A DNA stretch of 64,000 bases from Amphiscolops sp. MND2022 (lineage: Eukaryota): NCBI GenBank assembly GCA_964187785.1, contig OZ076409.1:57352001-57416000 (forward strand), written 5' to 3'. The notes beneath the pieces are model-generated. The model worked only from the letters and a program-made list of their open reading frames with translations, did no database searches and was not told the DNA's origin. Positions 5,811 to 39,649 of the stretch are shown here, piece by piece. A program made the position numbers and the translations under genes. Every line of letters begins with the position of its first letter. The first letter of the stretch is position 1.

Positions 5811-6245
5811 AAACAAGCCGGGACCGGCCAAGTCGGCACCATATCCAAGGCTCAAAAAAAGCAAAAAGACTTCCAAGTGTCAAGTATTCTCTTTTACAGT
5901 ACTCGAAAATCGAAAATTTTTCGAAAAATAAATGGACCGAGGAGTGGCGCGCCGGGGCTGGCGCGCTAAAGTCTCACAATGCCGAAAAACTGAAAGGGGG
6001 ACCCTTTGAGGTTTCTCAACATCCATTTTGTCGCAAAAACATGAAAAAATTGAAGAAAACAAAAATTTTTATTTTCGGAAAAAGTCTCAGTGCCGAAAAA
6101 AAATTGAAAGGGGGGACCCTTTGGGATTTTCCAACATCCATTCTGTCGCAAAACAGCAAAAAATTTGAAGGGGGACCCTTTGGGCAAAAAAAAAATTTTC
6201 CGGAAAAAAAGTCTCGCAGTGCCGAAAAAAATTGGAAGGGGGGAC
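5811..6245 (+). repeat. 5' part of a dispersed Helentron/HINE-like repeat split by element A (3' part at 25457-25652)
   Basis: Begins ACAAGCCGGGACCGGCCAAGTCGGC; resumes after the 3' LTR and ends GCGCCGACTAAAAA; an uninterrupted reverse-strand copy lies at 36945-37428. Confidence 0.7.
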
Positions 6246-8427
6246 TGTCATGCCAGCATGATGGAAATATAATCTACTAAATATCTGTAATGTAAATATT
6301 ATGTCTTATGTACTTAGATATGGGCAATATGAAGTCATATAATAAGAGCCATGGTTGTGAGCAACCCTACGTTACTTGTACCTTAATCCCTTCCCCCCCT
6401 GAGTGTGAGTTATATATATATATATATCTATTTAATACTGAGCGCTCTAGTTCCGGTGTCCGCATAAATGATCTTGCCATTAGCCTTAGATGTGCTACTT
6501 TTCTTAAAATATTGGTTTGTCACGACAAGGGAGAGAAGTTTTCCGGTCAGACTGGACCGCGAGATATAGAAACGATGAAAGTTATAACTTCTACTAGCTC
6601 CCCGCCTCAGAGTTTGTAGTTGTGACAAATTTCATTAAAAAACACATCACAAAATCATCGTCTAATTTAGTGATTGTTCTGATTTGATTTCATTTAAATC
6701 CATCAGCGGATTTACTGATGCTGTTAACAAAGTTCATCACAATCCAATCTCCAAGATTGCGAATGAACCACGCATGGGACAATAAACTTTACTTTTCATC
6801 ATAAATCCATCAGCGGATTTTACGGGACTCATTTTAGTAAAACTCATCACTAATTCATCGTTATATTTCATGTAGAAACTCACAAATGTGCTTCTCATTT
6901 CTTAAGGACAGTAAAACATCCTTTATTCATCGTCATACTAGCATAGAAGAGAAATGAGAAAGTACATCCTTAACCCATCCTAAAAAAGAGTGATTGCGCT
7001 GGTTATCTGATTTGTTTAGTAAATCCATCATTAATTCATCATGATTTCACCTTGTGTTGAGAATTACCATTTTAGTGGATGAGTTCATCCTAAACTCATC
7101 GCTAGTTTGAATTGCTTCGATAGTTGCTGTTTTAATTCACGAGTTCATCCTAGACTCATCACTAGTTTGAATTGCTTCGAGATTTGCTGTTTTTATTCAC
7201 GAGTTCATCTTAAATTCATCGCCAAAACTGATCTGCGCTAGAAATAGCATTTTCTGAGTGGATTCATCCTGAATTCATCGTCATTTTAATCAGTGCTGGT
7301 AATTGGCAAATTTTATGGGGAGTTCATCCTTTTATTATCGTCAGTTTATATCGTGTTGATTTTCGAGCGAAAAGACCACCATTCATCGCATTTTCATCCA
7401 GAGCTAAACTAGATTTGAAAATCAGCAAATATTCTGACAAATTCATCGCATTTCCATCTTTTGTTTTGAAGTATTGATTTTAGTGCTATAATTAGTTGGA
7501 AAACATCGTTTTCCCATCCTGTGATACGGTTTACTCTGGTTTGACTTGAAATTAGTACATTATTGAATGATTTGAGTTGCTATAGAAACCACGATGCTGC
7601 GTGCAGGTAATTGCGACATTGTAAAATGATGATTAATCATAATTAGCATATGTAGATGTACCATGTGGTTCAGCCAACTTGCGGCAGTTCACAACACCGG
7701 TCACGTGACTTACCAATTAGCACCAACTGGCAATAGCCAATAAGAGGCGGCTGGTAAGAGATTTAGCGTCTTTTCAGCCTGAAAAGACACGTGAACTGCT
7801 GTAAATTGGACCGCCATTAAACATTACTCAGACAGAAAATACATCTCTATTTCATCACTGAAAACTGCAAAATCGCAAGCTAACTACTCTCTCGGTACAT
7901 CTGCAACTGCGATGAAAATTGGATGAACTTTCCTACTCATCTTACTAATTTCCTGCTACTTTCCTGACGACTTGTTTATTTGTACTAATCATCGATAAAA
8001 CATCTCTGTTCAAATTTAGTGAATTGGAGATCATAAATTTAGACAAAACAGCAAAATACATCGAAATAACATCTCAGGTAATCCAGTCTTTACTCATAAT
8101 CCTTTTCTCCCATCTCTATGAACTCAGATCAAGGCACTGAACTCAGGAGCGGAAGAATTATTAGTTCCTCGTTAGAAACACCCGTTCCAACCGATCCAGA
8201 CATGGCCCAGTCGTCCGCCAATGACTCCGACAACAATGAAACTTCAGATATCTCGTCCCAGTTGTCTGAAATAAGAGAGAGTTATGAAAGAAAGATAAAC
8301 GAACTACAAAATGAGTTTAGCCAACTGAAGGACTTAATGATGGCTGTCATAAGTAAGACAGACAGTGAAAATCGACCATCAACTTCGAAAGGTCCTTCAA
8401 AGCTGGCCCACACGGTTGGGCTCGACA
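6246..8427 (+). repeat. 5' LTR of element A (2182 bp)
   Basis: TGTCATGCC...GGCTCGACA; direct repeat of 23229-25456; followed immediately by the PBS. Confidence 0.97.
7081..7520 (+). repeat. Degenerate ~59-60-bp tandem array with conserved CATC-N7-CATC core inside the LTR
   Basis: About 8 consecutive units starting e.g. GAGTTCATCCTAAACTCATC, GAGTTCATCCTAGACTCATC, GAGTTCATCTTAAATTCATC, ATTCATCGCATTTTCATC. Confidence 0.85.
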
Positions 8428-9626
8428 TGGTGACAGGAGTTACAGAAACCCGCTCCACCCGCCCGACATCCAGCTTCACAAACTTCAGGCGATACCAAGA
8501 AGACGACTCGGACGAAGAAGGTGAATCAACTCCTAGAAGCAATGAGGAACGACTACTCAATGCAATCGAGACGATCCCCCAACGAATCAAAAGCACCACC
8601 ACCAACACGAAATTACTACAGACACACGTCCCAAATTTCAGATGCCAAAAAGACAAATTCGTGGAATTCGAGCACCTTCTCCTCAACCACCTTAGCCCGC
8701 TCGCCAACAAAATCACCGAAGAGAGCAAACTCCACTTCTTTCAAAGCCTTTTGAGAGATGATGCAATAGAGTACTGGCAATCCATCCAGATAACACCACT
8801 AACAACGCTGAAAGATGTGCTCGACCTCTTCAGGAAAGAATTCGCGAAAGAGGATCTTAAAGAAGTAGCTCGATACAAATGGGATCAAGCCCGTTACGAT
8901 CCCACCACAGAAACATTCAGCGACTTCCTCAAAAACTTGAAAAAGATTGCGAAACAAGCATTTGGGGAAGAAGCGGACAAAATCATCAAGATGTTCTTGT
9001 TCGGCAAACTCCCAGTCGAAATACAACAAGAACTTACGATGGCCAATAAGGAGGAGAGCTCACCAGAAGAAATCAAGACATACTTGATGAGAAAGTACCA
9101 GTACCAGCAGTACGTCGCGCCACCTACGGCAATCCAACCATTCAACGCGGTCACCTCCTCAGCCCCAGCAACGATTACAACGACGAAGCCCACAACAACA
9201 ACGACGACAACACAACCGACAGAACGAAAACGATTTGAGGGACAATGCTTCTACTGCGGAAAGACAGGTCACCGCAAAACAGAATGCCGCGCCCGACAAC
9301 GTGACGAAGCAAACGGCATTAAGAAAGAAGATGCAATTCCGATGAAGAAAGCAGCAGACCCAGACAAACCGAAATACAATCCGAAGTTGGTCTGTCAGAT
9401 TTGTGGATACACGGGCCACTCAGCCAGAGATTGCAGACGACGCGTTCCCAAGGAAAGCAGCTCTGCATATGGAAAGATTTCATACACAACGAATTCACAG
9501 GACGACAACAAGGCTAGACGACAAGATTTAAAACGACAGCAAAAGCCGATGAATCCAATACAAGCAATTACTGAAGACGACGAACAACTAAGCTACTCTG
9601 ATGAAGACATTAACCAGGGTTTTTGA
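8118..9626 (+). CDS. gag: Gag (502 aa) with two CCHC zinc knuckles; first ~103 codons lie inside the 5' LTR
   Basis: CFYCGKTGHRKTEC and CQICGYTGHSARDC; retrotransposon-gag-like core (KLHFFQSLLRDDAIEYW); position upstream of pol. Confidence 0.95.
   Translation: MNSDQGTELRSGRIISSSLETPVPTDPDMAQSSANDSDNNETSDISSQLSEIRESYERKINELQNEFSQLKDLMMAVISKTDSENRPSTSKGPSKLAHTVGLDMVTGVTETRSTRPTSSFTNFRRYQEDDSDEEGESTPRSNEERLLNAIETIPQRIKSTTTNTKLLQTHVPNFRCQKDKFVEFEHLLLNHLSPLANKITEESKLHFFQSLLRDDAIEYWQSIQITPLTTLKDVLDLFRKEFAKEDLKEVARYKWDQARYDPTTETFSDFLKNLKKIAKQAFGEEADKIIKMFLFGKLPVEIQQELTMANKEESSPEEIKTYLMRKYQYQQYVAPPTAIQPFNAVTSSAPATITTTKPTTTTTTTQPTERKRFEGQCFYCGKTGHRKTECRARQRDEANGIKKEDAIPMKKAADPDKPKYNPKLVCQICGYTGHSARDCRRRVPKESSSAYGKISYTTNSQDDNKARRQDLKRQQKPMNPIQAITEDDEQLSYSDEDINQGF
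8428..8439 (+). other. Primer-binding site TGGTGACAGGAG (tRNA-Leu-like)
   Basis: Starts with TGG directly after the LTR CA end; identical 12-mer after the LTR of element B (53815-53826); one mismatch to the familiar tRNA-Leu PBS TGGTGTCAGGAG. tRNA identity is inferred. Confidence 0.85.
9617..9623 (+). other. Predicted -1 ribosomal frameshift slippery site G GGT TTT at the gag/pol junction
   Basis: X XXY YYZ heptamer directly before the gag TGA; pol is in the -1 frame. Confidence 0.8.
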
Positions 9627-12600
9627 TTCAGCCACGATTTCCGCCCGCTACAAATGACACGCGCGACAACCGACTAACGACTCAACAACCGACTCACAAC
9701 CGTCCAATGAAGAAATGGCAGCCTTCACAGGACAAACGACCGAAAGCTGATGATGTCTATCAGCGAAGAATTTTCAACGATAAAAAAGCGATGGGAAATG
9801 CACGTCAACTCAACGGCAGCCGCTTTTCTCCACTCGCTGAAATCAACGATGAACAAACGATGAACTGGCAACCAGACACCATGAGGCAGGTGGAAGATGC
9901 CAAAGAGATGGAAACCAACCATCTAGACGACGACTCAACTTCACACTCAACTATCGACCAACGGCTTAGTATTAAAAAACATGCAAAACAGAGTAGTATT
10001 AAAGTTTCAAAAGCTAAAAAACATGCAACTAAAACAGAAATTCACGTTCTCAGTCCCACTTTACACTTAAACAAGAAAGATAAAATGCTTTACGTCCCTC
10101 TTCAGTTTGACAAATATGAAAACAGCGCACTTTTAGATACAGGCGCAATTCAAAGTGCAATGTCTGAAGCAGAATTGCGAAAAATAACAACGGCTCATCC
10201 AGAAGCCATCCTTCAAGAACTCCCCCCTCCGAATTTCAAAATTCAAATAGCAAACGGGAACTTAGTCCCAGTACGTAAGCAAGTCTTACTTAGATTTTAC
10301 GTTGCTGGAAAAGTCTTTGAAGAAACGTTCCTAATCCTTCCAACAATGGGCACAATTTTAATTGGAATGTCCTTCTTTGAAAAGTACTCAGTCAATTTAG
10401 ACATAAAAAACCACCTTGTCCACTTCCCTAATCACATGATGTCCATGCAAGTTAGACAGCAAAAGAACAACAGATTCAAAACTGGTTTAATTGATTGGTG
10501 TTCCAGTACCAGAACAGTGATCCCTCCTCTCCATCAAGTGATGATACAGGTCCACAGCGACGCGGACATCTCACTTACAACTGGTACAGTTGAGGGCTCA
10601 CCTGGATTCATGCGAAAGACGTGTTTGCTTGTTTCCCCAGCTTTGGTTGACCTAGACGAGGGCAAGACGACAACCCAGGTCACCAACCCGAACAACCACA
10701 CGTTCACATTTGATGCCAACACCACTCTGGCACACTTTCGCATACCGACACCACATCAGGCGGCAAACATCACACCCATGCCAGTCGAACACTTGAACCT
10801 GATCACCAAGTACCCAGATGAGGCGGAAGCAGTGATCAACCAACTGTTCGTGAACCCTAAAATGAAGTCAACTAAGTGGTACCCAACTCCCGAGACGTGC
10901 AGTGAGCCAGACAAACTCAACGCAATTGAGCGACGAATCTATGATGAGATTCTGGCACTACGAGAGCTCGAGAAGCTTGACCCGTCCCAATCCGATGAAC
11001 AACGGATGAACTTCCTGAAGAACTTCAACTGGGACGACTCGCTTCTTACTCGGTCTCAACGGTTACAGGTAGAGGAGTTGCTGGTAAAGTTCAACTCCAT
11101 TTTTGCTAGACATCGTTTTGATATCGGCATGAACACTGATTTTATAGTTAAGCTAACACCCCAACATGAAGAACCTGTTTATTCACAAAGTCTCCCTACT
11201 CCGACAAATTTGAAGGACGATTTGCTCGTGGAGTTAGCTTTAATGCAAGAGTACGGGATCATAACTACTTTGCCTCATAGCGAATACTCATCTCCGATAT
11301 TTGCTCAACGTAAACCAAATGGTAAATTGAGGATTTTAGTTGACTTGAGAAGAATAAACCACTTGATCAAAAACGATTACGGTGAACACAACCATCCCTT
11401 AACAACAATTGCTGATGCTGCCCAACACATGGCCGGGAAAAAGTATTTCTGTAAACTTGATTGTTCCCAGGCCTACCATTGCATTCCAATGGCCGATGAG
11501 CAGTCTGTCCAACTGTTATCGTTTAATTTTGGTTCTAGAACTTTTGCCTTTTTACGCCTGGCCCAAGGTCTTAACCGTTCATTGTCAGCATTCACAAGTG
11601 TAGTCCGTGAGTATTTGGACCCCTTGGTCAAAGCGGACCGATGTGCTCAATATGTTGATGACATTGGAATTGCAGCACACACCCCTGACGAACTGATTAA
11701 TAACCTTGAACTTGTTTTTCAGCAGCTGAACAAAGCCGGTCTTAAACTTAGCATGAGTAAATGTGAATTTGGACAAAAGCAATATGAGTACTTGGGAAAA
11801 ACCATTTCTAGCACCGGTATTGCTCCCATTGAGAAACGAGTAACTGACTATCTGACCAAATTGAAACCCCCCAACTCAGTGAAAGCATTGCAACGTTATC
11901 TTGGTTTTGTAAACTTTTACAGGTCTTATATTCCCCGACTAGCTGATAAAACTTGTTGTTTACAGGAATTGATCAAGAAGGACGTCCCTTTCAAACTGAA
12001 TCAACAACATAAAGACGCTATTTTTGAAATCAATGAAAGTTTGTTAAAAGCAACAAAAGTGTCTCCGAAATTGCCATTACCTGATAAACAATTGGTAATC
12101 ATGTGTGACGCCAGCGAACACGCTGCCGGCTATGTTTTGTTAATTGAGGACTATGCTGACCCGTCAGTCAAACAAACATACGCCCCTGTTGCATTTGGCT
12201 CTAAGAAATTTCAGGGCGGCCAGATGTCTCTAACAATGTATGCCAAAGAGTTTTTAGCTATGCACTTTGCCTTCGATGAATTTGGCCACATTCTGTGGGG
12301 TGCGAAAAAACCCATCAATGTTATGACTGACAATAAGGCCTTGACTAGATTTTTTCAGGCGAAGCATACCCCGCCTTCACTTTGGAATTTTTGCGATCAA
12401 ACCCTTCAGTTCAATTTTTTATTAGCACATGTTCCAGGAGTTGAAAATCCCGCAGCGGATTACTTATCTCGGCTTGAGATTAGACCTGAAGACCGTGTAC
12501 ATTTAAAATTGACTGATACTATTCCAATTCACAGGATCGAGATCGACATCGCCTCCCGTACACCAAAACAGGAGGAAGACGAGCCTGATTACTTTCCCGC

Positions 12601-14803
12601 GAGTGAACCACTCAGATGCAAACGCCAGAAGGATGTCAAAGAGATGAAATTGGCAACTGGCACTGACGTGGCTCATGACGATGGGAAAGGGATGAAGTTC
12701 ACCAACTGTGAGAGAACAGCGGCCTCAGATGACTTCGCCACTGACAACCATCTGACGTACCGCCTCACAGACGTGGACGAGCCGATTCAACTCTCGCAAT
12801 TCATCCGTAAAGTATCATTATCACGCCCGGTAATGAGTCAGGTTAGCCCCGCTGAGGGGATCGATCTAATTCAGGTCCAGAAAAATAACTGGGTTATTCA
12901 AAAAATGATTAGATTTTTAGAAGGTACTGAAATTTTGCAACACCCAGTTAATATGCAAGATCAGTTTTTTCAAAAGTTGCACAAAAATCGAAAACGCCTA
13001 CAAGTTGTAAACGGTGTCTTGTACAGACAGTTTTTTGATCACACGGGACTGGAGTCTCACAAGCAGTTAGTTGTTCCTGAAGACTGTATTTTGAAAATAA
13101 TTAGGACTCTACATAACAGCCCGGTACAAGGACACCCTGGTTTAAAGAAAATGTTGTATGAACTTCGTAAAAGATATTACTCTCCTAACTTAGCCTGTAA
13201 AGTTCAAAAAGTCCTTGACGGATGTGAAAACTGCATGAAGTCTAAAAGTGTAAAAGAAACGCAACTACGTCCACCGTTACAAAAAATCTACGACCCGTGC
13301 GACGGACCAGAAGACCTGTTGGAAATAGACATCGTTGGTCCACTCCCGGCGTCGAACGGTTTTACACACATTCTGACGGCTGTTGACGTTTTTTCACGCT
13401 ACCTGTTCGCCGTTCCGCTGAAGAGACCTGATACACATTCCGTAGTCAGAGGATTACTGTCGATCTTCACGAAACACGCGTATGTGCCCAAGCACATTCT
13501 GACGGACAAGGGCACGGCGTTCACGGCTGAACTTCTGTCTGAAATCGCGAAAGCGGCTGATATTCACATCTCCCATGCCACGATAAAGCACGCACAGACA
13601 ATAGGCATGGTGGAGAGAACGCACGCGAAACTGAAAAAGATCCTTAAAATTAGTGTAAACGCAGACCGACCACAATGGGACCGCTATGTCGACATAGCAA
13701 TCATGGCCCATAACACAACGTATCATGATTCACTGAAATGTTCACCAACTGAAATTTTCCACGGAAGAACACCATACAACACACTAGATCTGCAATTCCG
13801 AAACGCAAACAAACCGGCTGAAAAAAAGTGCAAGGACGTGAACGAAATTCTAGACAAAATGAACTTCATCTTTAGAGACAATCTAGATAACATCATTTCC
13901 GCCTATCATAAGTACAAAACGTACTATGATAGAAAAGCACGAGCACAGCCACTGAAGGTGAATGAATTTGTGTTCCTACTAGATCCTAAGTACGACTCTC
14001 AGAGAAGCAAAGAAGAGTTTAAAACTTTCCATTGGAAAGGACCGTACAAGGTGATTAAAGTGCTATCCGATAGCAACTACATCATCCGCAAAGTAGGCAC
14101 ACACCAAACTCAGTGCGTACACAGAATGCGACTGAGGTTGTTCAAACCGGAATTTCCGATTGATGACATCAACGTGTCCAAACATCTCTACCCAGACACT
14201 GAAAGGGTTGAAGACACGGACATTTTCGACTCGAATATTCCGACGACCGACGAAGTAGATCAGAATGAGAATGACAATCTAGATCAAGACTTAGTCGAAG
14301 AAGAGCCTTCAGAAGAAATAATTCCGCAGGTACAAGAACGACACAGTCCACAAGTAATTCCTCCAGAAATAACCACGAGAATAGATTATCAGCAAGTAGA
14401 AACTGACCACAACAACTTTAGACCACCTACAGTTAGATTTGGAACACAAGAGGAAATTATTCTACCGCCCCCCCGCGATGAAAGTAGGATAAGAGTACCT
14501 CTGAGAGACGAACAACACGAAAATCAGTCACAACAGACAAACACGCAAAGTGAAGATGAGGAAAGGATGAGTTCTAGACCTTCTAGAAACAATCGAAGTA
14601 GGTACAGGTTACGCGAAAACCCTACACCGAAAAAATATCCTGACTTCCTTATTCATGAGATTACAACAGCCAGAAACTCTCTGAGAAAGACCAACAAAGT
14701 AAACGTAACGAGTTGGCCAAGAAAAACAACATTTCAAAACACACGATGTGTTAAAGATGAACAATTCACAAAAACGAGTCAATTACATGCAATTTCCATT
14801 TAA
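9623..14803 (+). CDS. pol: Pol polyprotein (protease, RT, RNase H, integrase), uninterrupted 1726 codons
   Basis: LDTGA protease; YVDD RT; CDAS..AAG, KEFLA, TDN RNase H; H-H-C-C, IDIVG/TDKG/GMVER DDE integrase; WKGPY motif. Confidence 0.97.
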   Translation: MIQPRFPPATNDTRDNRLTTQQPTHNRPMKKWQPSQDKRPKADDVYQRRIFNDKKAMGNARQLNGSRFSPLAEINDEQTMNWQPDTMRQVEDAKEMETNHLDDDSTSHSTIDQRLSIKKHAKQSSIKVSKAKKHATKTEIHVLSPTLHLNKKDKMLYVPLQFDKYENSALLDTGAIQSAMSEAELRKITTAHPEAILQELPPPNFKIQIANGNLVPVRKQVLLRFYVAGKVFEETFLILPTMGTILIGMSFFEKYSVNLDIKNHLVHFPNHMMSMQVRQQKNNRFKTGLIDWCSSTRTVIPPLHQVMIQVHSDADISLTTGTVEGSPGFMRKTCLLVSPALVDLDEGKTTTQVTNPNNHTFTFDANTTLAHFRIPTPHQAANITPMPVEHLNLITKYPDEAEAVINQLFVNPKMKSTKWYPTPETCSEPDKLNAIERRIYDEILALRELEKLDPSQSDEQRMNFLKNFNWDDSLLTRSQRLQVEELLVKFNSIFARHRFDIGMNTDFIVKLTPQHEEPVYSQSLPTPTNLKDDLLVELALMQEYGIITTLPHSEYSSPIFAQRKPNGKLRILVDLRRINHLIKNDYGEHNHPLTTIADAAQHMAGKKYFCKLDCSQAYHCIPMADEQSVQLLSFNFGSRTFAFLRLAQGLNRSLSAFTSVVREYLDPLVKADRCAQYVDDIGIAAHTPDELINNLELVFQQLNKAGLKLSMSKCEFGQKQYEYLGKTISSTGIAPIEKRVTDYLTKLKPPNSVKALQRYLGFVNFYRSYIPRLADKTCCLQELIKKDVPFKLNQQHKDAIFEINESLLKATKVSPKLPLPDKQLVIMCDASEHAAGYVLLIEDYADPSVKQTYAPVAFGSKKFQGGQMSLTMYAKEFLAMHFAFDEFGHILWGAKKPINVMTDNKALTRFFQAKHTPPSLWNFCDQTLQFNFLLAHVPGVENPAADYLSRLEIRPEDRVHLKLTDTIPIHRIEIDIASRTPKQEEDEPDYFPASEPLRCKRQKDVKEMKLATGTDVAHDDGKGMKFTNCERTAASDDFATDNHLTYRLTDVDEPIQLSQFIRKVSLSRPVMSQVSPAEGIDLIQVQKNNWVIQKMIRFLEGTEILQHPVNMQDQFFQKLHKNRKRLQVVNGVLYRQFFDHTGLESHKQLVVPEDCILKIIRTLHNSPVQGHPGLKKMLYELRKRYYSPNLACKVQKVLDGCENCMKSKSVKETQLRPPLQKIYDPCDGPEDLLEIDIVGPLPASNGFTHILTAVDVFSRYLFAVPLKRPDTHSVVRGLLSIFTKHAYVPKHILTDKGTAFTAELLSEIAKAADIHISHATIKHAQTIGMVERTHAKLKKILKISVNADRPQWDRYVDIAIMAHNTTYHDSLKCSPTEIFHGRTPYNTLDLQFRNANKPAEKKCKDVNEILDKMNFIFRDNLDNIISAYHKYKTYYDRKARAQPLKVNEFVFLLDPKYDSQRSKEEFKTFHWKGPYKVIKVLSDSNYIIRKVGTHQTQCVHRMRLRLFKPEFPIDDINVSKHLYPDTERVEDTDIFDSNIPTTDEVDQNENDNLDQDLVEEEPSEEIIPQVQERHSPQVIPPEITTRIDYQQVETDHNNFRPPTVRFGTQEEIILPPPRDESRIRVPLRDEQHENQSQQTNTQSEDEERMSSRPSRNNRSRYRLRENPTPKKYPDFLIHEITTARNSLRKTNKVNVTSWPRKTTFQNTRCVKDEQFTKTSQLHAISI

Positions 14804-15410
14804 AATGAACATGAAGATGTAAAATGGATGAAAAGGTACTAAAAATCACATGAAAAACGCATAAAAACAAAACACGATGTAAAACTGATGAAAAACGACC
14901 AAAAAACCAGAAAAAACAACACACAAAAATTTGAGATGAAAAAAGGATGAAATCACATGAAAATTTAGCTCATACACACGAGAGATGAAAAAGTGATGAA
15001 CTCAGTCAAAAATTCAACCAATCAACATGCAATATTTACTAACGATGCATTTGAGATGGAAAATACCATCAGAATGCGAACGCACTCACGTTCATGCTAT
15101 CATAAGACTCGAGCTCGGCTAGAGGATGAAATAGCGATGAACTCGATCCAATTATTCATAAATTACATGAAATCAATTAACGAGATGAATTTGTGATGGA
15201 CACTACCATCAAATCGTGACCGAATTTATCGTTAACCTGACACAATACTCTAGCTTCGCTGGAGGATGTCAAAACGATGAATTTAGTCTAAATGGATATT
15301 CGAAAATATTAAATGACTTACCAAAACCTCCTTGTGATGGGAAACACCATCAACATAACATCACAATAAATCAGCTAATTCTCAAACAACATGTAACTCC
15401 ACGAAACGAT
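14745..15410 (+). repeat. GATG-N7-GATG motif array just downstream of pol
   Basis: GATGTAAAATGGATG, GATGTAAAACTGATG, GATGAAAAAAGGATG, GATGAAATAGCGATG and others at roughly 50-70-bp spacing. Confidence 0.8.
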
Positions 15411-16669
15411 AAAAAACAACCGACTTTATTTCGAATCATGCAAACAGAATTATGCGACACAAAAATGAAATGATCAATACATGTAAAGTTCAAAGACCTG
15501 CCAAATCAATGACGTCACGAAAGAAATTAACAATTCCAAACTACATGCAATACAAATGAGCAACGCACGGAAATATACATGTACCGTTTAAAAATGAATG
15601 AGATAATATATGCAATTCACACCAAAGCCATCCAAACCTAGACGAATAAAAATGAAACAAACAATCGAAAATACATGAAGCCTACTAACTTACATGCAAA
15701 ATATAAAAACTGACGAAACACCCACAAAACGAATAAAGGAGTGAGCACCCCCCAGTAAACATCAGTTCATAACAAGCAAAATACCCCTACCGAAAAGCCA
15801 AAAACATTCCTTCGTGCTGGCTGGCATTTCTCTGAAAAGAGTGCTGGTTAGTTGAGGCGGGGAGCTCACAACCATATTCGGATGAAGCTTGCTGCGTTGG
15901 TTATCCAGCGGCTAGTGGATTCTCAGTTAGTTTTGTAGGGGCTTTGTGACGACAAAGCCCTGTCCAAATGAACGAAAATAAAAACACCAAATTAAAATAC
16001 ATGAAACTAACACCGGACATAAAACAACATGTCGATAATGGGGCAACCCATTTAAAGGAATACATTATGAAAACACGCAAACATGAAACCACACAATATC
16101 ACAAAACTTAATAATTCGAAACATGCAAAGCCGTAGATGTCAATCACCTTGATTGATCAGATTAAATGTCAAATGGACAAACCCATTTTGACATCTGATG
16201 ACAAACAACCGACCGTAAAAATAACATGAAGACTATATATAGCTCAAAACTGAGAGATTTCATTCATCTGAATGGAGCGGAGCAGCTCCACTTACCCAGC
16301 TTTGGATTGGTACCTCAAGTACCTTGCACGCCTACGGGGTTCCAATACCTTTGCTGAGTGAACATCTCTTCGACTGCCACGCAAGCGGCAGTCACAAGAG
16401 TACGAAAAATGATTCATGCAATAAGGTTCAAACTATGACAAATCCGAAACGCAACGAAAATGAGTATAACACATGCACACTAAATTTCATGCAATTTCGA
16501 CAACCTAACAAACGATCAACACCATATGACACTCAAATACATGAAGAAAACACTCCCAAAATACCGCAAAATTGATAAAATACACTCATCTACTATGAAA
16601 AATGCAACTCTCGATCACGTTATAGTAAAATAAACACGAAAAACACGCAAGATAAATATTTTTCCAAAA

Positions 16670-17050
16670 TTACGATGAAAAGAAGATGAACTATGCAGTA
16701 AAATGAGTAAAATTCGACAAGTCAAAACTTGCGATGCAAAAACGATGAACTACAGCAAATAACTCGCCAAAATGATAAAATGCAGGACGAAAAAACGATG
16801 ATATATGTAGAAAAACCACATGAAACAACATGCAGTGATTCGCATATAATTAACGATGTAAAAAAGATGAGAAAACAGTTTTCGCAACGTCGCTCGGCCG
16901 ACTGAGGGAAACGTGACGAAGGTGAGATGAAAAATCCAAACGAAACGCTGTTCAAATTAACTACACTCCCACGAGATGTAATAACGATGATTACCGCAAA
17001 AAGACTAGCTGAGAATTGTGACAACACGCAAAAACGATGTGAAAACGATG
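16670..17050 (+). repeat. GATG-N7-GATG motif array
   Basis: GATGAAAAGAAGATG, GATGCAAAAACGATG, GATGTAAAAAAGATG, GATGTAATAACGATG, GATGTGAAAACGATG at ~60-bp spacing. Confidence 0.8.
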
Positions 17051-17360
17051 CTAATTGGAATTTGGAACTCTGAATGACGAGACCTAACAGCAGAAACTAA
17101 TGATCCGCAAACCTAACCTGCCTACGACCTCAATCACTAACTAGTATCTCAAGAGCAAAACAATTCGAGTGCCACATCATTTAACTTGTAAATACAAGCT
17201 ACCGAACTTTCCGACGTAGCCTTTTAATTTTCCCCCCTCCCAGTATTCTCATTTCTCTTGGCAACCCATTTATGATAACAAAACTACTAACTATAATATA
17301 AAATCAAGCAAAGCAATACAAAAGTTTCAAACAACGGAGTTTACAGTTGGATCTCAAACA

Positions 17361-20300
17361 TTAATTGCCGATCTCCGGACTGGCAGCTCGTTCCCCACTA
17401 AGCGTGTATCCTAGCTCCGCATACAATTGGAGACGATAATCTTCTCCGGCCACAATTCCGATGTCGTCCCACAACATACCCTCGTCCAGCTCCGCCAAAT
17501 TGACCAATCATCGATGTGACTCAGTCACTTCCTCTAACAAAGGGCCGCTCACACTGTCATAATTTTGGATATGATTAGCAGACAAATAGGCCAAAATCAC
17601 AGCACACACACAACTCGTGACATCGCTACTTAACTGCCCAAATCCATCGCAACAAAGACTGCTTCTGCTCTGAACTCCTCCATCTAGGCATAAAACACTG
17701 CGAAGCAGATTCTGAGCGCCACAACTAGAGCAATGGCGAAGAAGATCGATGACAGAACAACCCTCTGTACGTCCTGCTAGTCCCGAGTCACGTCGGAAAT
17801 TGGCAAGGAAATCCAGAAAGCCACGTTCCATCCGACCCTGCTCCGCACGGGTGATCCGACCCAGATCCACAAGCATATCAGTGAAAATCCTGATCTCGTC
17901 TAATAGGACGTCCTCTGCAACAAAACTCAGACAGGGCATACTGAAAACACTGCGCACAAACGACAGATCGTCTCGCACACCCGGCAGATTAATAACAGTC
18001 TTCACAACGGTTAGAATGAAAACCGGAACAAGTGACAAATCCTCTTCATAGAGAGCGGCATTCGAGCCTTGATCGTCCACACAACGAAATCCGTCCAGCA
18101 ACACCTGATGTTTCACTTCTGAGATTTCATAGCTTTCCACATTCAGAAAGAGCCATCCACGAATGTCCAATTCCGATGGTAGCCTTTCTTCATCTACTAG
18201 CATCATCATCAGTGACTTCACAAAGGCAGCACTCTCAATTGCCCAGTAGCACGCGCGCAACGTCGAAGACCCAAAACTCTTCTCGTAGGAGCTGATCACT
18301 GAAAAACACGAATCACAATTATCACAAGAAACAACCAGGTTTAACATTACACCCACAACCGTATAGCTTCCAACTCGATCTCAACAAAAAACCAAAACCC
18401 CCCCGTAACTTACAGAACTAAAGTATTACTAACAAGCACGGTACACAAGACCAAGAACAAGGAGTCTAATCGGAATGCCGATCTCAGCACGTAGTGTCAA
18501 GTCTAAGGCATCCAAAGGCCCTTCACCACTAGCGAAGCGTAGCAAGCATAAGATGTCAGACCAGTTCGTCCGTAACTCCTCGCACACATCGGCCAGGGTC
18601 CAAATGTACACCTCGCCGGTAAGAATCGCCTAAAATGTAAATAATACCATCCCAATCAATTCGATAAAATCAAACAATTACATCACGCCTACACACCTGC
18701 ACAACACTAAAATTATTACATCAACCAATTCTCTAATATACTACGTACTTGCAAAAGTTGAGGGCATCCTAGCAACAGAGGATCTTTCACGTATCCTTTG
18801 AGACGTTTCTGTAAATGGTTCAGTACCACGTGAATGTCTGTACCCCCCAGCACTGATCCGGCCACATCCACAATTGCCCGACTGACATCTGACAGACCCA
18901 GAGATTTCACGTCCAATGATCCGACTCCTGTGCTGCTTCGAAAGAGCCCACCCAGCTGCGGCAACTCATCGCAACACAGTCCAAGTGGGACTGGCTCACC
19001 GAGCATACAGCACCACATGTTCACTAGCCATGTGATTACCCTGCTTTCCCAGTCTCGAGCCACACTGAAGCTAAACACACAGTAGTGCTTGACCCCGTCT
19101 AACAAACACACTGTAACAGTCCCTGTCACGCGCCCTCCCACAACTGACAAATGGAAGCTACTGTAAGTGCTATCGGTCCAGACAGTGATCAGTCGCCGCA
19201 TCACGTACGGCCACAGCCCTAATACGATCACGCTCTAAAACAAAAACACTGTGAATAAAACATAAAAATAGCATCCACCCTACCCCCCACCCACTACTAA
19301 AACTAGAACAACACATAATGGCCAAAAGTATGACTAAAAAACATACGAGTAGACGCTTACCATGACATCTTTCAATCCACATTGCGCCCCAAACAAGACC
19401 GCATGTTGGGGATCGGAAGCCACCAACACTTCCCACAGGTTCGTGACACTGGCAAACTGACAATCCCGATATAGGGCGTCCACAACAAAGCAAATAAACA
19501 GACGAACAGTTCGCTCTGGCCAGTCTTCCCCTTCCTCTTCGTCGCCCCACACAGGTCGTCCAGCACCCTCCAACTCGAAAACTTCCACCACATTAAGTGA
19601 TGGACAGGTCTCTATGAAAGGCACGGACACCCCCTCCAGGTTCACACGGCATTCTGCACTTTCGTCGCTTGTCATGAGAGTTCCATCACGTCGCCGCAAC
19701 GGTAGCCCTCGGTGCAGCCGTACCACACAATCCAGCCAATGATGGCCTAGGCCTCGGCAGTGCTCCATAAAGGTGGTAATGCCTCGGCTGCCCACCTTAA
19801 CATCTCTCTTACACATTAGACATCGCACATACGACATGCGCGACTCGTGATTGCGTGCATATCCTAGCGCCAGCCCGCAGTATGGATGATCAAACCATCC
19901 AGACTTAATCACTTTCTTTCCTGATAATCACAACCACACAATATAGCAAAAGTAATACCATTACAAACCATCATAGACAACGACTAAAATCATCTGTTAC
20001 ACATCAGAAAAATCGAAAAATGCAAAAGTCACAAGTAAAAACCACAAAAGTTCACCCGGAGTGATGAAAACACGATGTAAAATAATATTTTCATCGGGAA
20101 ATATAAGCGAAAAACGAAGAAAAAACGAAAAGATGAAAAAGAGATGTGTTTGCAGACCACCAGAATGAAAATTGAAACTTTTAAAGGCGAAAAACTCGAA
20201 CGATGAAAAAGAGATGTATAGAACGACTTTGAACCAAAATTGAGATATTTTAGAGCGAAAACAACTTAACGATGAAAAAGGGATGTAAACTGAAAAGAAA

Positions 20301-22049
20301 ACACTGAAAAATAGCCAAAACGAAAAGAAAAATTTTAAGGATGTAAAAGAGATGAAAAGTGGCTAAAATAGCTAGAATGCAAGGCAAAAGAGAAAAAACG
20401 CCATGTTCGAAAACTTTTAACGATGAGAAAATGATGAAAAACACAACATGCAAAACTGAACAGTGAAAAGAGCTAAAACGATGGAAAATAGATAAAAAAG
20501 GAGAAAAACGCGAAAAATACTAGTGGAAGCGGAAATGAAAAGAGTAAAAACGGAAGGTTACTGATCAAATACTTCACAGGTTTCAAAGCTGTTTAGGTAA
20601 CCTGGTAGATGAGACGCGATTGGCTCATCATCGGAGTCATTGAGGCTGGGCCCCAACGGTGAGGTCTCTCCTAATACAGTATCTGGTGCAGGAACAACGT
20701 CGCCAGGATCAGGACCTACAGACGGAGAACCACTGAAGGAGAAGTCCTCGGGAATCTCAACCCCTGTCTCAGTGCTACTGGCCGAGGGAAGATCGGGCTG
20801 GTCAACGACTGGCTCCACCACCGAAAGGACGTCAGCGATCAACGAGGAAGCAACGGGAGGCGACTCGACAGGAGGATCGTGCACGGTGGAGGAATCACTG
20901 GTCTCCACAACAGCTTGCACTGCTACGTCAGCAGAATTGCACACTGTATTGATGGCCACATCCACTTGCTGCACCTCATCCCTCGTTGAGGTACCATGGC
21001 ACACAGTCACCCGAGAAGGAGGAGGACTTCTGGCAGCGAATTCACAATCCAAGTATCTCTGGAAGTTGGGCGACAACACGGAGACTGGAGCCCTTGCGAC
21101 CGGAGAACTGGTTGAGAGATCCTGTAAGAAGGAAGACAGCTCAAGCTGAGGAGGCCCTCCTTGGGTACTGACGTCGACGCTGTCATTGCCGAAGTCACTG
21201 GTCCCAATCGCAATGGAGTAAGTGATGGGACGCGGTCTCGGGGCATGGATAGGCGTTGGACCTGAAAGAAAGAAACAATTACTGGACGACGATGATTGGA
21301 GAAGAAAGAGCGCGTACGCCGCGCGAAGAAAGAAGACCGGAGAAGAATTCATCCAAAACTCATCTTCAAAAATGGGATTTACAGCGAGTCAGTCATGAAG
21401 AGCTGTGAATGTTCATGACACATCCTTAATTCATCTTAAAAATGAATTACATGGATAATCGACCATAAAGGGCACTACATGCAGATGAGATGTGTACATC
21501 GGAATTACATCGGAGTGTCAGGACGATAGCCTAGTACAAGGAAGAAAGTTGTAGAGGAGTTAACTCACTATACTGCAGGATACTCTCTCGCAGCATGTCT
21601 CGCATGTGGCGGTCATACCACCCAAAGGTGACGCTGCCAAGAGAGGCATACCAAGGGTAGTGATCTAAACATCAAACGGAAAGAGTCAGTGTTTGAATGG
21701 ATCGGAGATGAGAAACGAAGAGATTGCAGACTGAACATGATGATCTGAGAGGATGGAACTTACACTGCGGAAGGTACGGGACATTAGGGACCTGCTCAAA
21801 TTGTTGCTCAGGTTGAATCTGAGCTGCTGGAACTGCTGCTTGCACTTCAGGAGCCTGTTGAGGCGAAACGGTCTGGAGCGTGGTCAGGTCGGAGATGACC
21901 CCAACAGAATGGACTGAGTCCGCTAAAGCAAAACGTGCTTTCAGTACCTAATTGTTCCCTAACCCGTTTGTGACGAAAAGAAAAATAGTGCACTTACTTT
22001 CTGTGGCCTCGGTCTCAGGTAATGAATGAACTGAGTGAATCTCTGACAT
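17361..22049 (-). CDS. Antisense spliced accessory gene of element A (~1048 aa): low-complexity N-terminus, BED-like zinc finger, hAT-transposase-like body; one in-frame TGA at 17508-17510
   Basis: Exons 21998-22049, 21764-21922, 21569-21664, 20602-21261, 19361-19920, 18749-19234, 18434-18629, 17361-18298; all GT-AG with matching phases (1,1,1,1,0,0,1), total 3147 nt. Finger CLMC-X16-H-X5-H. The donor at 20601 is the least certain. hAT assignment is by eye. Confidence 0.8.
20060..20495 (+). repeat. GATG-N7-GATG motif array inside an intron of the antisense gene
   Basis: GATGAAAACACGATG, GATGAAAAAGAGATG (twice), GATGAAAAAGGGATG, GATGTAAAAGAGATG, GATGAGAAAATGATG at ~60-70-bp spacing. Confidence 0.8.
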
Positions 22050-23228
22050 TTTGAATGTGAACGAGAATTGCAAGCAACAATCTGAAAAGAATGGAAGAAG
22101 GTGAAAGAAGGAAAGAAATCGACGAATCCAGGAACAGAGAATTTGATCAGTAATTAAATGGCCTGATCAACCATGATTACGGAAGAGCAAATTCAATAGA
22201 AGATTTCAAAGAGCGCGACGCAGCTTGAATGCCATGTTAATCAAATACTTGAAGTCAGAAGATGAAAAATCGATGAACAACTCTCCGATTTCAAATACTG
22301 ACATCACTTTTCTTCTTAGTACAACCAACTCAAGCTTTCTCTGAAAATGGATCGTCCTCTCCTAGGACTTGACAAAAAACGTCAAGTATTTGATTTGTTG
22401 ACAGCTGCCAGTCTCAGATCAATACCGACGAAGTTGAGCGGAAACGCGCAAAGGAAATCGTGGCGATTTTCAAACCGACTTGAATGGAGGATGATTTATG
22501 GATGAGAATGCTGCTGACAACCGGTTGTAATTTCCTTCAGTTATAAATTCAGTCTCAGCCAATCAGATCGAGCAACAATTGCTATGGCGACGAATTCATC
22601 TCTTTCTCATCGCTCAAAAGTCGAGCAGCGGAAGTAACTTTTGACAGTTGCTATGACGACGATTCATCTTCTTTCCATCGCGAGTAAACAAAGCAGCGGC
22701 GCCAGCCGTTCCGCTAAACCAGCATCGATGTCTCGCTGAGCAAACAATTCATCGTTCATTCATCCCGAGAATTTGGATTTAGACGAATGGCGGCGACAAC
22801 TCACTGCGAATTTGTCAATGAAGATGCCTTGAATGTTTACTCAGCGTAGGCGGCCTGGGGGAAAACTTTTCTCCAGGAAATCGAGATTTCTACCGAAATA
22901 ATCAACAAACCGAGCTCCCGTCAAAAGCATGACGACCAATAAAATGCAGATCAGCGGACATTCGATGGGCCAAGAATTAGAGTTGCCGCGTCGAAAATTT
23001 TAACCGAAATCACCCAGGATGATGCCAGAAAATGACGATTACCGAAGGTCCTCTTCTCAGAGAAGCTCTCACAGGACAGAACAAACGAAGGAAATGCCAA
23101 CTCAAGAACAAGCGAAGGATCAATTTTCTCCCTAACCAAACGAAGGAAACAGTCGAAGCCAACGCCGAGACAACCATCCTCTGCACATTTGGCCCCTGCA
23201 CTCTCAGTCCAAATCCCACCCCCGGGAG

Positions 23229-25456
23229 TGTCATGCCAGCATGATGGAAATATAATCTACTAAATATCTGTAATGTAAATATTATGTCTTATGTACTTAG
23301 ATATGGGCAATATGAAGTCATATAATAAGAGCCATGGTTGTGAGCGACCCTACGTTACTTGTACCTTAATCCCTTCCCCCCCCTGAGTGTGAGTTATATA
23401 TATATCTACTTAATACTGAGCGCTCTAGTTCCGGTGTCCGCATAAATGATCTTGCCATTAGCCTTAGATGTGCTACTTTTCTTAAAATATTGGTTTGTCA
23501 CGACAAGGGAGAGAAGTTTTCCGGTCAGACTGGACCGCGAGATATAGAAACGATGAAAGTTATAACTTCTACTAGCTCCCCGCCTCAGAGTTTGTAGTTG
23601 TGACAAATTTCATCAAAAAACACATCACAAATTCATCGTCCAATTTAGTGATGGTTCTGATTTGATTTCATTTAAATCCATCAGCGGATTTACTGATGCT
23701 GTTAACAAAGTTCATCACAATCCCATCTCCAAGATTGCGAATGAACCACGCATGGGACAATAAACTTTACTTTTCATCATAAATCCATCAGCGGATTTTA
23801 CGGGACTCATTTTAGTAAAACTCATCACTAATTCATCGTTATATTTCATGTAGGAACTCACAAATGTGCTTCTCATTTCTTAAGGACAGTAAAACATCCT
23901 TTATTCATCGTCATACTAGCATAGAAGAGAAATGAGAAAGTACATCCTTAACCCATCCTAAAAAAGAGTGATTGCGCTGGTTATCTGATTTGTTTAGTAA
24001 ATCCATCATTAATTCATCATGATTTCACCTTGTAATGAGAATTACCATTTTAGTGGATGAGTTCATCCTAAACTCATCGCTAGTTTGAATTGCTTCGATA
24101 GTTGCTGTTTTAATTCACGAGTTCATCCTAGACTCATCACTAGTTTGAATTGCTTCGAGATTTGCTGTTTTTATTCACGAGTTCATCTTAAATTCATCGC
24201 CAAAACTGATCTGCGCTAGAAATAGCATTTTCTGAGTGGATTCATCCTGAATTCATCGTCATTTTAATCAGTGCTGGAAATTGGCAAATTTTATGGGGAG
24301 TTCATCCTTTTATCATCGTCAGTTTATGTCGTGTTGATTTTCGAGCGAAAAGACCACCATTCATCGCATTTTCATCCAGAGCTAAACTAGACTTGAAAAT
24401 CAGCAAATATTCTGACAAATTCATCGCATTTCCATCTTTAGTTTTGAAGTATTGATTTTAGTGCTAGAATTAGTTGGAAAACATCGTTTTCCCATCCTGT
24501 GATACGGTTTACTCTGGTTTGACTTGAAATTAGTACATTATTGAATGATTTGAGTTGCTATAGAAACCATGATGCTGCGTGCAGGTAATTGCGACATTGT
24601 AAAACGATGATTAATCATAATTAGCATATGTAGATGTACCATGTGGTTCAGCCAACTTGCGGCAGTTCACAACACCGGTCACGTGACTTACCAATTAGCA
24701 CCAACTGGCAATAGCCAATAAGAGGCGGCTGGTAAGAGATTTAGCGTCTTACCAGCCTGAAAAGACACGTGAACTGCTGTAAATTGGACCGCCATTAAAC
24801 ATTACTCAGACCGAATTGCGATTAGCTACCATCCAGTAGGATACTTAACGTCGAATTTCACCAGAAAATACATCTCTATTTCATCACTGAAAACTGCAAA
24901 ATCGCAAGCTAACTACTCTCTCGGTACATCTGCAACTGCGATGAAAATTGGATGAACTTTCCTATTCATCTTACTAATTTCCTGCTACTTTCCTGACGAC
25001 TTGTTTATTTGTACTAATCATCGATAAAACATCTCTGTTCAAATTTAGTGAATTGGAGATCATAAATTTAGACAAAACAGCAAAATACATCGAAATAACA
25101 TCTCAGGTAATCCAGTCTTCACTCAAAATCCTTTTCTCCCATCTCTATGAACTCAGATCAAGGCACTGAACTCAGAAGCGGAAGAATTATTAGTTCCTCG
25201 TTAGAAACACCCGTTCCAACCGATCCAGACATGGCCCAGTCGTCCGGCAATGACTCCGACAACAATGAAACTTCAGATATCTCGTCCCAGTTGTCTGAAA
25301 TAAGAGAGAGTTATGAAAGAAAGATAAACGAACTACAAAATGAGTTTAGCCAACTGAAGGACTTAATGATGGCTGTCATAAGTAAGACAGACAGTGAAAA
25401 TCGACCATCAACTTCGAAAGGTCCTTCAAAGCCGACCCACACGGTTGGGCTCGACA
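23229..25456 (+). repeat. 3' LTR of element A (2228 bp)
   Basis: Direct repeat of 6246-8427 with scattered SNPs, a shorter (TA)n tract and an extra 51 bp at 24812-24862; followed by TSD GGGAC. Confidence 0.97.
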
Positions 25457-25757
25457 GGGACCCTTTGGTCTCCCCGGGTATGGTATGGTACGCGGGAAAA
25501 CAGGAAAAACCTTTTTGGTTCAGTTCGCTAGACCAAATAGTGCATTTTGGTCCAATAATATTTTGTAAGAACTATTTTGGCCAGTTCGTGTGGATTGAAA
25601 AAAAAAGTCACTATAATAGTCGCGTTTCACTTCATGAAGCGCCGACTAAAAATGACAAGTTGGTGTTTAGAATATCTAGTAATCAACTCTCTGCTGTCTG
25701 AGTACTAGCTATTTAAGGCGAACTCTGAAGGTCGTCTGATCTGTACATGCCACATTG

Positions 25758-38296: not shown

Positions 38297-38465
38297 TTCA
38301 AAGTCTTCAAAGTTCGGATATAACGTTTCAAAGTTCGGATATAACGTTTTCAAAGTTCGGATGTAACGTTTTCAAAATTCGGATGTAACGGTTTCAAAGT
38401 TCGGATAAAACGTTTTCAAAGTTCCGATATGACGTTTTCAAACTTCGGATGTAACGTTCGGATAA
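38297..38465. repeat. Minisatellite, ~22-23-bp unit TTTCAAAGTTCGGATRTAACG
   Basis: About 7 directly visible tandem copies. Confidence 0.9.
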
Positions 38466-39649
38466 ATCTAACAAAAACAAGTGAAAAGTTGAATGATCTT
38501 GACGAGATTGTTGTAACATTGTGTTGCACTTCCATTGGATAGAGATAGTAATGTAGAACTAGACTTCCGAATTTAGGAAATACATAATGAATATGGTTGA
38601 CGTTATCCACAATAGAAAGTAGGCGAAAACACGCACCAGACGCGCGGAGATTTTGAGAGAGTGTAGCACACCATATTAGATGGAACTCAATTAAAAGGAG
38701 GTAACAGACTCAAAAAATTGAGCAAAAAGGAAAAGAAAGTGAACGTGAGTTCAATACCCGCACTAAGCCTTTTTTTGTCGGCAAAGGGTGAGTAAAGACC
38801 TATGGGTTCCTCCTGCTGTATACTAAGGCTAAGAATAAGAAAGAGTTTATGAAAGGTTAAACATCTTGTTTTGCTGGTATTATACAAAACTATCTACACA
38901 AAAGTACGTATAATGAGTTTCAATCTCTAAACGTTGTTTGTCTACAGTACGGCAGGTCTGTCTGAGCCAAAGCTTGGCAGAGGTTAATAACGGATGAACC
39001 GTATAACCATTCTACCTTGTCTCTCCTCCCCGGGCGTTCCCTGGAATGCAGAAGTTACAGGTGTCATCTTTTCGAGTAGGATGTCTGCAGGTTTCTGTAT
39101 GAACAGTGGTTGCGGGGTTCCTTTAGTACGGTTCCAAATAACGAATCAGAATAATTAGTCACATCCAAAAGTTTCTGGTATGGTAGGCTACCGTATCTCT
39201 TCAATTCATGTAGTTTTTGTTGTGACCGTCTAATGTTCATTTCAAAAATCTCCGCCTGTTGAATGGCCCTGTGGTAGTGATATTAGACATCATTCTCTGG
39301 GTATGTTCCAATCGGATGTGTCATACGCCTTCCCAGAATCTTCCGGCGACTCTTCGTTTGCGTCGTCTTCTCTTATCTTCCGAATCCGGCCTTTTCTCAA
39401 ACTTGACAGTCTTGAGTTTCCCGTACAGAATATTTCTCAAAAATTTATCCCATCGCCAGTACTTTCCGTCAAAGCACAGTTAGCAATGGCGTTCTGTTTT
39501 ACGATATCTCATGCTACTGTTAGTACTGGTTCCCATCGGCTTTTCCTTTCACTCTAAAATGAAGGACCCAAAAAAAATTCTGTGCGTTTTTTTTTCCAAA
39601 TTCTGCCATAACTCCACTCTTCACTTCACTCTTCTCTACACTCTCTCAC

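Follow-up and report, generated by a model that had tools for sequence, protein, structure and literature searches.

A multi-intron antisense gene for a BED-type finger protein in Ty3/Gypsy retrotransposons of Amphiscolops

Between pol and the 3' long terminal repeat (LTR) of a complete Ty3/Gypsy retrotransposon in the genome of Amphiscolops sp. MND2022 (GenBank assembly GCA_964187785.1), we find an antisense, eight-exon gene for a BED-type zinc-finger protein that is under purifying selection and is part of the element lineage. The element occupies positions 6246-25456 (19.2 kb) of a 64,000-nt stretch of contig OZ076409.1 (positions 57,352,001 to 57,416,000, forward strand), herein referred to as the window, whose coordinates are used throughout. 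The gene lies on the minus strand between the end of pol (14803) and the start of the 3' LTR (23229), occurs as deeply diverged versions (cassettes) on one shared integrase backbone and is accompanied by arrays of a paired CATC-N7-CATC motif. An antisense accessory open reading frame (ORF) at this site is known from other elements; for a multi-intron BED-type gene with swapped cassettes, the literature covered gave no counterpart. The best explanation of the whole, to which we assign a probability of about one half, is an old accessory gene whose BED-type protein binds its own motif arrays and regulates its own element.

A first-pass annotation, made from the letters of the window, had proposed eight minus-strand exons joined through seven GT-AG introns of matching phase into 1049 codons with one internal TGA, placed between pol and the 3' LTR, and all of these features were recovered (Table 1). 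The exons sum to 3147 nt, the introns measure 75, 99, 307, 681, 126, 119 and 135 nt (phases 1, 1, 1, 1, 0, 0 and 1) and the TGA is codon 1000. A DNA search of the genome returned at least 42 matches (37 of 824 candidates scored), 18 of which are other full-length copies. GT-AG is present at 129 of 133 intron ends in 19 sister loci, the reading frame is open throughout in eight of the 19, and the TGA proved specific to the window copy (0 of 18 sister loci covering that codon). Canonical dinucleotides persist at 68 of 72 splice positions of introns 5-7 in 12 diverged loci, where intron 6 itself is no more than 53-65% identical by a lenient global alignment. Of the eleven donor/acceptor pairs of intron 7 that preserve the frame, all 12 diverged loci conserve the one that yields the 1049 codons. 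Two uninterrupted, nameless database proteins read from exon-7-like into exon-8-like sequence and match the spacing of the chosen junction, with flanking tyrosines 20 residues apart in both proteins and in the gene model (18 or 19 at alternative junctions); a third, from a second lineage described below, is continuous over intron 5, and all three may be transcript-derived or come from intron-less copies. Chance ORFs on the antisense strand are ruled out by the splice sites kept in sister and diverged loci. A polypyrimidine tract with CAG, conserved in 20 of 20 rows, forms a probable acceptor 32 nt above the ATG, suggesting that the predicted transcript probably has a non-coding 5' exon. Exons 2, 3 and 4 (21998-20602 region) are all phase 1-1, which would permit skipping or swapping without a frameshift; exon 3 is conserved and exon 4 is highly variable.

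The gene travels with the element. Among 110 integrases (the best 110 of 29,932 candidates, 98-100% identical to the window copy), at least 56 have an exon-8 homologue about 3 kb downstream, always antisense, when their coordinates are crossed with two exon-8 lists (146 of 946 and 128 of 1336 candidates scored); integrases without a listed partner were not counted as negatives, and the chance expectation for the first list is about 0.4. For exon 8, the ratio of nonsynonymous to synonymous substitution rates (dN/dS; Nei-Gojobori estimates, rough near saturation) is 0.08-0.36, or dS is saturated, in all 45 pairs of ten variants, and for exons 2-4 it is 0.07-0.28 between two subfamilies. Diverged variants are far from the ratio near 1 that the first-pass annotation had named as counting against its proposal, and the higher, noisy values among near-identical copies (0.06-0.96) are expected after insertion. 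The surroundings of the window gene contain no pair of terminal inverted repeats (TIRs) with a 6-10-bp target-site duplication (TSD), a range that includes the 8-bp hAT type. Linkage, purifying selection and the missing TIR/TSD bracket together bear out the earlier proposal of an element-encoded accessory gene. Two antisense-gene copies (L003 and L004; G000:C4, 61.265 and 61.282 Mb) lie 17 kb apart in the same orientation, as expected of tandem elements with a common LTR.

The cassettes are far older in appearance than the backbone that carries them. Four identity classes are found among the 56 linked copies (six of the window's own type, 28 at 58-61%, 13 of a 41%-identical type and nine of further types), and the exon 8 variants at diverged loci are only 37-66% identical. 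In one linked copy (L051, 10 kb read), the integrase core has 100% amino-acid identity (dS 0.11), and identity is 91-99% over the greater part of spacer, intron 4 and upstream region. DNA identity falls to 57-68% in exons 5-8, or to 57-76% when exon 4 is included, with saturated dS. A second subfamily is the reverse mosaic, with exons 5-8 at 95-99% and exon 4 at 59%. Within the gene, variation is greatest in exons 4 and 8 rather than in the exon that encodes the finger. From this mosaic pattern we infer that old gene versions recombined onto young backbones: recombination between co-existing copies, presumably template switching, would move versions of exon 4 and of exons 5-8 onto the recent integrase backbone. 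The persistence of diverged cassettes suggests selection for diversity, for example in escape from host silencing, and such selection is likely; alternatively, pol may have swept recently through old lineages while the diversity of the cassettes was under no selection.

The element holds 74 CATC-N7-CATC pairs, against a shuffle mean of 0.74 (maximum 4 in 200 shuffles) and a single pair in 32.8 kb of flanking DNA. Spacing 11 is sharply preferred, with 74 occurrences versus at most seven for every other spacing to 30. CATC is enriched in the non-coding parts of the element, and the LTRs are densest (16-18 plus-strand pairs each, in arrays beginning about 400 nt inside the LTR end); nine pairs lie within gag-pol, seven of which read as Asp-x-x-x-Met. 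The pairs follow one another at 50-80-nt steps in arrays whose strand depends on the region, plus for the LTRs but minus for both spacer and intron 4; this occurrence in either orientation fits a site in double-stranded DNA. Amplification of a short motif in non-coding element regions is also the arrangement of self-regulators of the VANC/TnpA kind. The arrays are also retained in variants whose exon 8 is 41% and 64% identical.

A second Gypsy lineage in the window, whose reverse transcriptase (RT) region is 56% identical to that of the first, carries a distant homologue of the antisense gene with the identical C-X2-C-X16-H-X5-H finger pattern. Profile comparisons of the two genes are collinear (exon 5, probability 86.7%, E 4e-6; exon 7, E 3e-4; exon 8, E 0.004), with non-significant values for exon 6 (E 0.07 and 0.04); direct BLASTP between the antisense exons of the two elements gave no match, and local hidden Markov model searches of the second element with first-lineage profiles gave E of 0.1-1. 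Judged by eye, the second lineage appears to have introns at the positions of introns 5-7 with matching phases, plus one extra intron. Of the 115 best matches to its integrase (92-100%), at least 82 are followed at a distance of 1.7-3.1 kb by the gene, always in antisense orientation and at 61-100% identity, and in both lineages most copies retain the antisense ORF between pol and the 3' LTR, as in Retand-type elements. The second element has no CATC pairs; it has nine GGACC-N3-GGTCC-like palindromes in 12 kb, and the other 52 kb of the window has one such site, inside a related gag fragment. This palindromic motif also falls within coding sequence. The gag fragment (33050-33615) matches the beginning of the gag region in the second element at 76-85% identity and holds one palindrome copy, a 200-base N run (51733-51932) lies just ahead of the second element, and one second-lineage exon has 7329 first-look candidates genome-wide.

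The predicted product agrees with the first-pass annotation at its N-terminus, where the first 324 residues are 12% Pro, 14% Ser and 13% Asp+Glu, and in its finger, a C-X2-C-X16-H-X5-H motif at residue 356. Pfam zf-BED matches five of six exon-5 sequences (best E 0.0016), under the curated cut-off. The helical body that had been read from the sequence holds for exon 8, modelled as helical with a predicted local distance difference test score (pLDDT) of 59 (below 50 in the part where a hAT dimerisation domain would lie), and not for exon 6, predicted at low confidence (pLDDT 49) as mixed helix and strand (helix-3 strands-helix-strand-helix). Structure searches with this exon 6 model placed RNase H-like domains among the top 18 of 48,161 chains, yet level with unrelated folds: the RNase H-like domain of PRP8 (Z 4.6, root-mean-square deviation [rmsd] 5.0, 114 aligned) is tied with such folds, followed by Argonaute (Z 4.2) and Hermes (Z 4.1, rmsd 4.8, 107 aligned, from Hermes residue 152). 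Neither model had a Foldseek match at E 0.001, VIA structure searches reached best Z values of 4.6-5.7, within background, and searches of PDB sequences with five antisense-protein profiles gave nothing below E 0.49. ESM Atlas scores for exon 6 are at most 0.80, with DDE-transposase clusters (ISL3, MULE, Mutator) at 0.75-0.76 as leads only, and the second element's exon had no usable match there.

Whether this protein descends from a hAT transposase, as the first-pass annotation had supposed, can be answered with a cautious preference for descent. In hAT transposases a finger precedes an alpha/beta domain and then a long helical stretch, an order that the antisense protein shares, as far as its domains are predicted, over about 690 residues; YSxEF...FIRY-type motifs of the second-lineage protein are, as we take them, reminiscent of hAT proteins. 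The sub-cut-off zf-BED matches fit capture of a hAT gene, a conserved DDE triad is missing and 0 of 22 members matched the dimerisation domain (PF05699), which leaves capture plausible rather than proven. DUF4371 likewise matched no member scanned, nor anything over its cut-off in the genome, which holds many true hAT transposases (at least 150 scored matches over cut-off). Catalytic activity is unlikely, since no Asp or Glu is invariant or near-invariant among 11 sequences in the first 130 residues of exon 6, taken to span the predicted strands. Relatives in ENA are nameless: 86 proteins match exon 8, with identity down to 17-25%, 104 match the second-lineage finger region, and no cluster member examined has an assigned name. 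One of the nameless database proteins (P0053) passes from exon-6-like sequence directly to the final part of exon 8, which suggests a copy with an internal deletion. A search for exon 8 among longer database proteins scored 0 of 2383 candidates; viral and metagenome contigs contained no relative of the antisense family, and the metagenome contigs contained two short RT-only relatives.

Several known systems share parts of this layout; the comparisons here and below draw on portions of the cited sources. The plant elements Retand, Grande and RIRE2 and the fungal element Boty are known to have antisense ORFs between pol and the 3' LTR, Grande gene23 has its own promoter, and the origin and function of such ORFs are called unknown, with a search for spliced antisense transcripts urged (PMC11963269; PMC7264820). 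The earlier claim of a layout without described counterpart among Gypsy lineages therefore stands, within the literature covered, for a multi-intron BED-type gene and fails for antisense ORFs at this site, which went unmentioned in the first-pass annotation, as did the diverged cassettes, the motif arrays and the second-lineage homologue. Position, orientation, retention across copies, tandem arrays in the region and a suggested nuclear or DNA-binding regulatory role are shared with these elements; unlike them (TRP28, SMC-like or unknown domains), the present gene combines seven coding introns, a BED-type finger, a paired motif and diverged cassettes. The word "intron" occurs 0 times in the main text of the Retand paper, and TRP28 (PF04195) matched nothing in exons 4, 5, 6 and 8 or their relatives, the exons covered by the scan.

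VANC of the Arabidopsis VANDAL elements has targets in tandem arrays in non-coding regions, including its own intron, and is more variable than the transposase (PMC5735166), and TnpA of Spm is reported as transposase-derived in a preprint whose available text contains neither "retrotransposon" nor "LTR" as whole words (bioRxiv 10.64898/2026.08.24.746577). Like both, the gene described here is an element-encoded, intron-containing accessory gene, more variable than the core enzyme, with an arrayed motif that extends into its own intron; unlike these plant DNA transposons of tested activity, its carrier is an LTR retrotransposon, and its function is proposed by analogy. Pfam scans gave no match to DUF1985 or DUF287 of VANC/TnpA-type families, and no direct comparison with VANC or TnpA sequences was made. 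Among retroviral proteins, HBZ is spliced, and HBZ and APH-2 are small bZIP-type proteins. Both are encoded in env-bearing retroviruses, unlike the gene described here, and no homology to it is shown. The likeness lies in being antisense, in the 3' half of a genome, and, as proposed here, in nuclear regulation of the element (deltaretroviruses, summarised in PMC11963269). Bdelloid rotifer LTR retrotransposons resemble the present element as animal elements with a captured non-env gene at the env position, there an enzymatic ORF3 (GDSL, DEDDy) expressed from spliced messages (PMC5408684); the available text of that paper describes no antisense or intron-rich genes, and that of PMC12477816 contains no such case. 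BED domains, including that of Hermes, bind short repeated subterminal motifs in pairs (PMC10368747). Like Hermes and ZBED-type proteins, the antisense protein has a C2H2 finger (weak zf-BED) followed by alpha/beta and helical regions, with paired repeats as candidate sites; it differs from hAT proteins in having no invariant acidic residue in exon 6, no dimerisation-domain match and no TIRs with 8-bp TSD, in its 320-residue disordered N-terminus and in being borne by a retrotransposon. In the literature covered, which left out most subscription papers, supplements and repeat databases so that an earlier annotation is possible, we found no Gypsy element with a multi-intron antisense BED-type, cassette-swapping gene.

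We hypothesize that the gene is transcribed from the opposite strand, starting in the 3' LTR or in the region above 22081, such that its introns would survive each round of reverse transcription. Splicing of the genomic RNA does indeed pass over antisense introns, in line with the first-pass annotation; its rule that sense introns are lost is too strong, given that unspliced genomic RNA can retain them. The protein would comprise a disordered acidic N-terminus (about 320 residues), a zinc finger of BED type and a body that probably stems from a transposase and lacks a conserved DDE triad; its finger would bind paired CATC-N7-CATC, two sites one helical turn apart, in LTRs, spacer and introns, and the bound protein would regulate the chromatin and transcription of the element, with activation or anti-silencing, as by VANC and TnpA, the likelier direction. 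Several points weigh against this reading. That the regulation is positive is a guess, a host factor could be what binds the motif, and self-binding of the arrays is a candidate activity suggested by the motif and by analogy. The zf-BED score of the window copy is 13.6 bits against a cut-off of 20.6, and 54 of the 110 integrases have no partner among the exon-8 matches listed. CATC bases are changed at 3 of 302 compared positions in seven comparisons, versus 6-29% at other positions, but the sites were defined on the window copy, which biases the estimate, the comparisons are non-independent, and of the seven, five reach p < 0.05 and two are not significant alone (p 0.06 and 0.14). Covariation of protein and motif spans two lineages only, and exon 8 variants as diverged as those above share one motif, such that a change of DNA specificity, as in VANC, does not explain their diversification.

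Other roles for the protein fit parts of the same evidence. Antisense retroviral proteins and truncated transposases can repress, and the anatomy fits equally well a repressor or copy-number control factor that binds the arrays and limits the element's transcription, particularly as a protein bound in the LTR could block the promoter. We nevertheless judge this unlikely, because the family is young and numerous, because arrays that run the length of the element and enter gag-pol are better matched to protection of its chromatin throughout than to a block at the promoter and because diversifying a repressor with one common target brings no obvious gain. A factor acting after reverse transcription, which would coat the cDNA via the arrays and aid nuclear entry, end pairing or target choice, would account for the density of the arrays in the LTRs; hAT BED domains organise transpososomes on subterminal repeats (PMC10368747), and a role in the pre-integration complex has been suggested for plant antisense ORFs (PMC7264820). 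Such a role is no more probable than repression, given that the arrays start well inside the LTR end and also occupy internal introns and the spacer, and that a complete integrase and an ordinary 5-bp TSD are present.

It is similarly improbable that the arrays are host-factor sites and that the antisense protein has an unrelated job, such as antagonising host defence, with cassettes arising from a protein-protein arms race. Variability concentrated in exons 4 and 8 and not in the finger exon, and a motif constant over cassette versions, are what that would predict; yet the finger exon is the best conserved among exons 5-8, finger and motif both differ in the second lineage and the motif pair is almost absent from flanking DNA. 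That the gene is passive cargo or a nested DNA transposon is suggested by its transposase-like domain order and by the many true hAT transposases of the genome, and is very improbable: a one-off nested transposon, which the first-pass annotation had named as an outcome that would overturn its proposal, is largely ruled out by the lack of TIRs with a TSD, by sister copies and a second lineage with the gene at the same site and orientation, and by strong purifying selection and conserved splice sites. Beyond the self-binding regulator that we favor lies a bolder version, in which an animal Gypsy clade captured a hAT transposase gene in the distant past, lost catalysis and made of it a spliced antisense system of self-recognition and anti-silencing, with lineage-specific finger-motif pairs and with cassettes kept by balancing selection and shuffled onto young gag-pol backbones. 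We regard it as possible and would sooner doubt than accept it; if true, it would mean gene transfer from class II to class I elements, a VANC-like weapon for a retrotransposon and polymorphism like that of the major histocompatibility complex in a transposon population, with dozens of ancient cassettes.

The function of antisense accessory genes of LTR retrotransposons is a stated open question (PMC11963269; PMC7264820), and the present system offers, beyond the plant cases, a DNA-binding finger that can be recognised, a narrowly defined candidate site, a natural control in the second lineage and its different motif, hundreds of young copies and allelic cassettes, making retrotransposon self-recognition and anti-silencing directly testable. 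A hAT origin, if true, would document gene flow from a DNA transposon into a retrotransposon. Such elements are also liable to be missed, or mislabelled as host zinc-finger genes, in genome annotation.

The carrier itself has the anatomy of a Ty3/Gypsy element, with two TG...CA LTRs inside a 5-bp TSD and gag followed by protease, RT, RNase H and integrase in that order; the top PDB matches of its RT are Ty3 and foamy-virus RTs. The LTRs differ by 27 mismatches in 2176 aligned nt (1.2% divergence). The LTR includes the start of gag with its first 100 or so codons (8118-8427, repeated at 25147-25456), which places the primer-binding site within the gag frame and repeats the gag start in the 3' LTR. 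The 24 nt before the 3' LTR (23205-23228) are C-rich with a short purine end only, and no typical polypurine tract. No plus-strand ORF longer than 178 codons occurs in the 8.4-kb interval between pol and the 3' LTR, and an env-bearing, errantivirus-like element is ruled out by the lack of a sense ORF3 with signal peptide and transmembrane anchor; the hydropathy maximum of the antisense product is 1.89, in an internal helix. The element is inserted in an interspersed repeat (5968-6245 and 25457-25655), an inverted copy of which lies 11.4 kb away at 36944-37191.

Table 1. Features of the two Gypsy elements in the window and of their antisense genes.
Feature	Position	Strand	Remarks
TSD GGGAC	left copy 6241-6245, right copy 25457-25461		5 bp, directly flanking LTRs
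5' LTR	6246-8427	+	2182 nt, TG...CA ends; 17 CATC-N7-CATC pairs, mostly in a ~60-nt array
gag, zinc knuckles	8118-9626	+	ATG within 5' LTR
Primer-binding-site-like sequence, TGGT...	8428-8445	+	in gag frame
pol, open: protease-RT-RNase H-integrase	9614-14803	+	Ty3/Gypsy order; overlaps gag end, -1 frame
Spacer motif array A	14816-15279	-	8 pairs, steps 49-81 nt
Spacer motif array B	16674-17050	-	5 pairs, downstream of antisense stop
Coding exon 8, helical	17361-18298	-	copy-specific TGA at 17508-17510
Coding exon 7	18434-18629	-	
Coding exon 6, predicted alpha/beta domain	18749-19234	-	RNase H-like element order (low confidence)
Coding exon 5, BED-like C2H2 finger and ~130-residue domain	19361-19920	-	best conserved among exons 5-8
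Intron 4 motif array	20063-20436	-	6 pairs, ~70-nt steps
Coding exon 4, Pro/Ser/acidic	20602-21261	-	differs among cassette versions
Intron 3 motif pairs	21350-21511	+	three pairs, opposite orientation
Coding exon 3	21569-21664	-	conserved, 87-90% between versions
Coding exon 2	21764-21922	-	
Coding exon 1, ATG	21998-22049	-	
Polypyrimidine tract and CAG above ATG	22082-22118	-	probable 5'-untranslated-region intron acceptor; conserved in 20/20 rows
3' LTR	23229-25456	+	TG...CA ends; 19 CATC-N7-CATC pairs
Second Gypsy element gag-pol	53094-60039	+	broken by stops and frameshifts; RT region 56% identical to first
Second element's antisense BED-finger gene, intron-containing	60222-64000	-	broken here; extends past window; distant homologue

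Elsewhere in the window, an open frame at 34845-35516 matches sodium/calcium exchangers (PF01699, E 3e-17) and is probably a host exon, and an RNase H fragment at 644-1453 derives from a different LTR retrotransposon. The remaining repeats are a 22-nt tandem array (38303-38478), two copies, separated by 2.5 kb, of a CATGG-rich palindromic repeat of 850 nt (41293-42141 and 43789-44633) and two long perfect hairpins (46984-47113 and 39793-39931).

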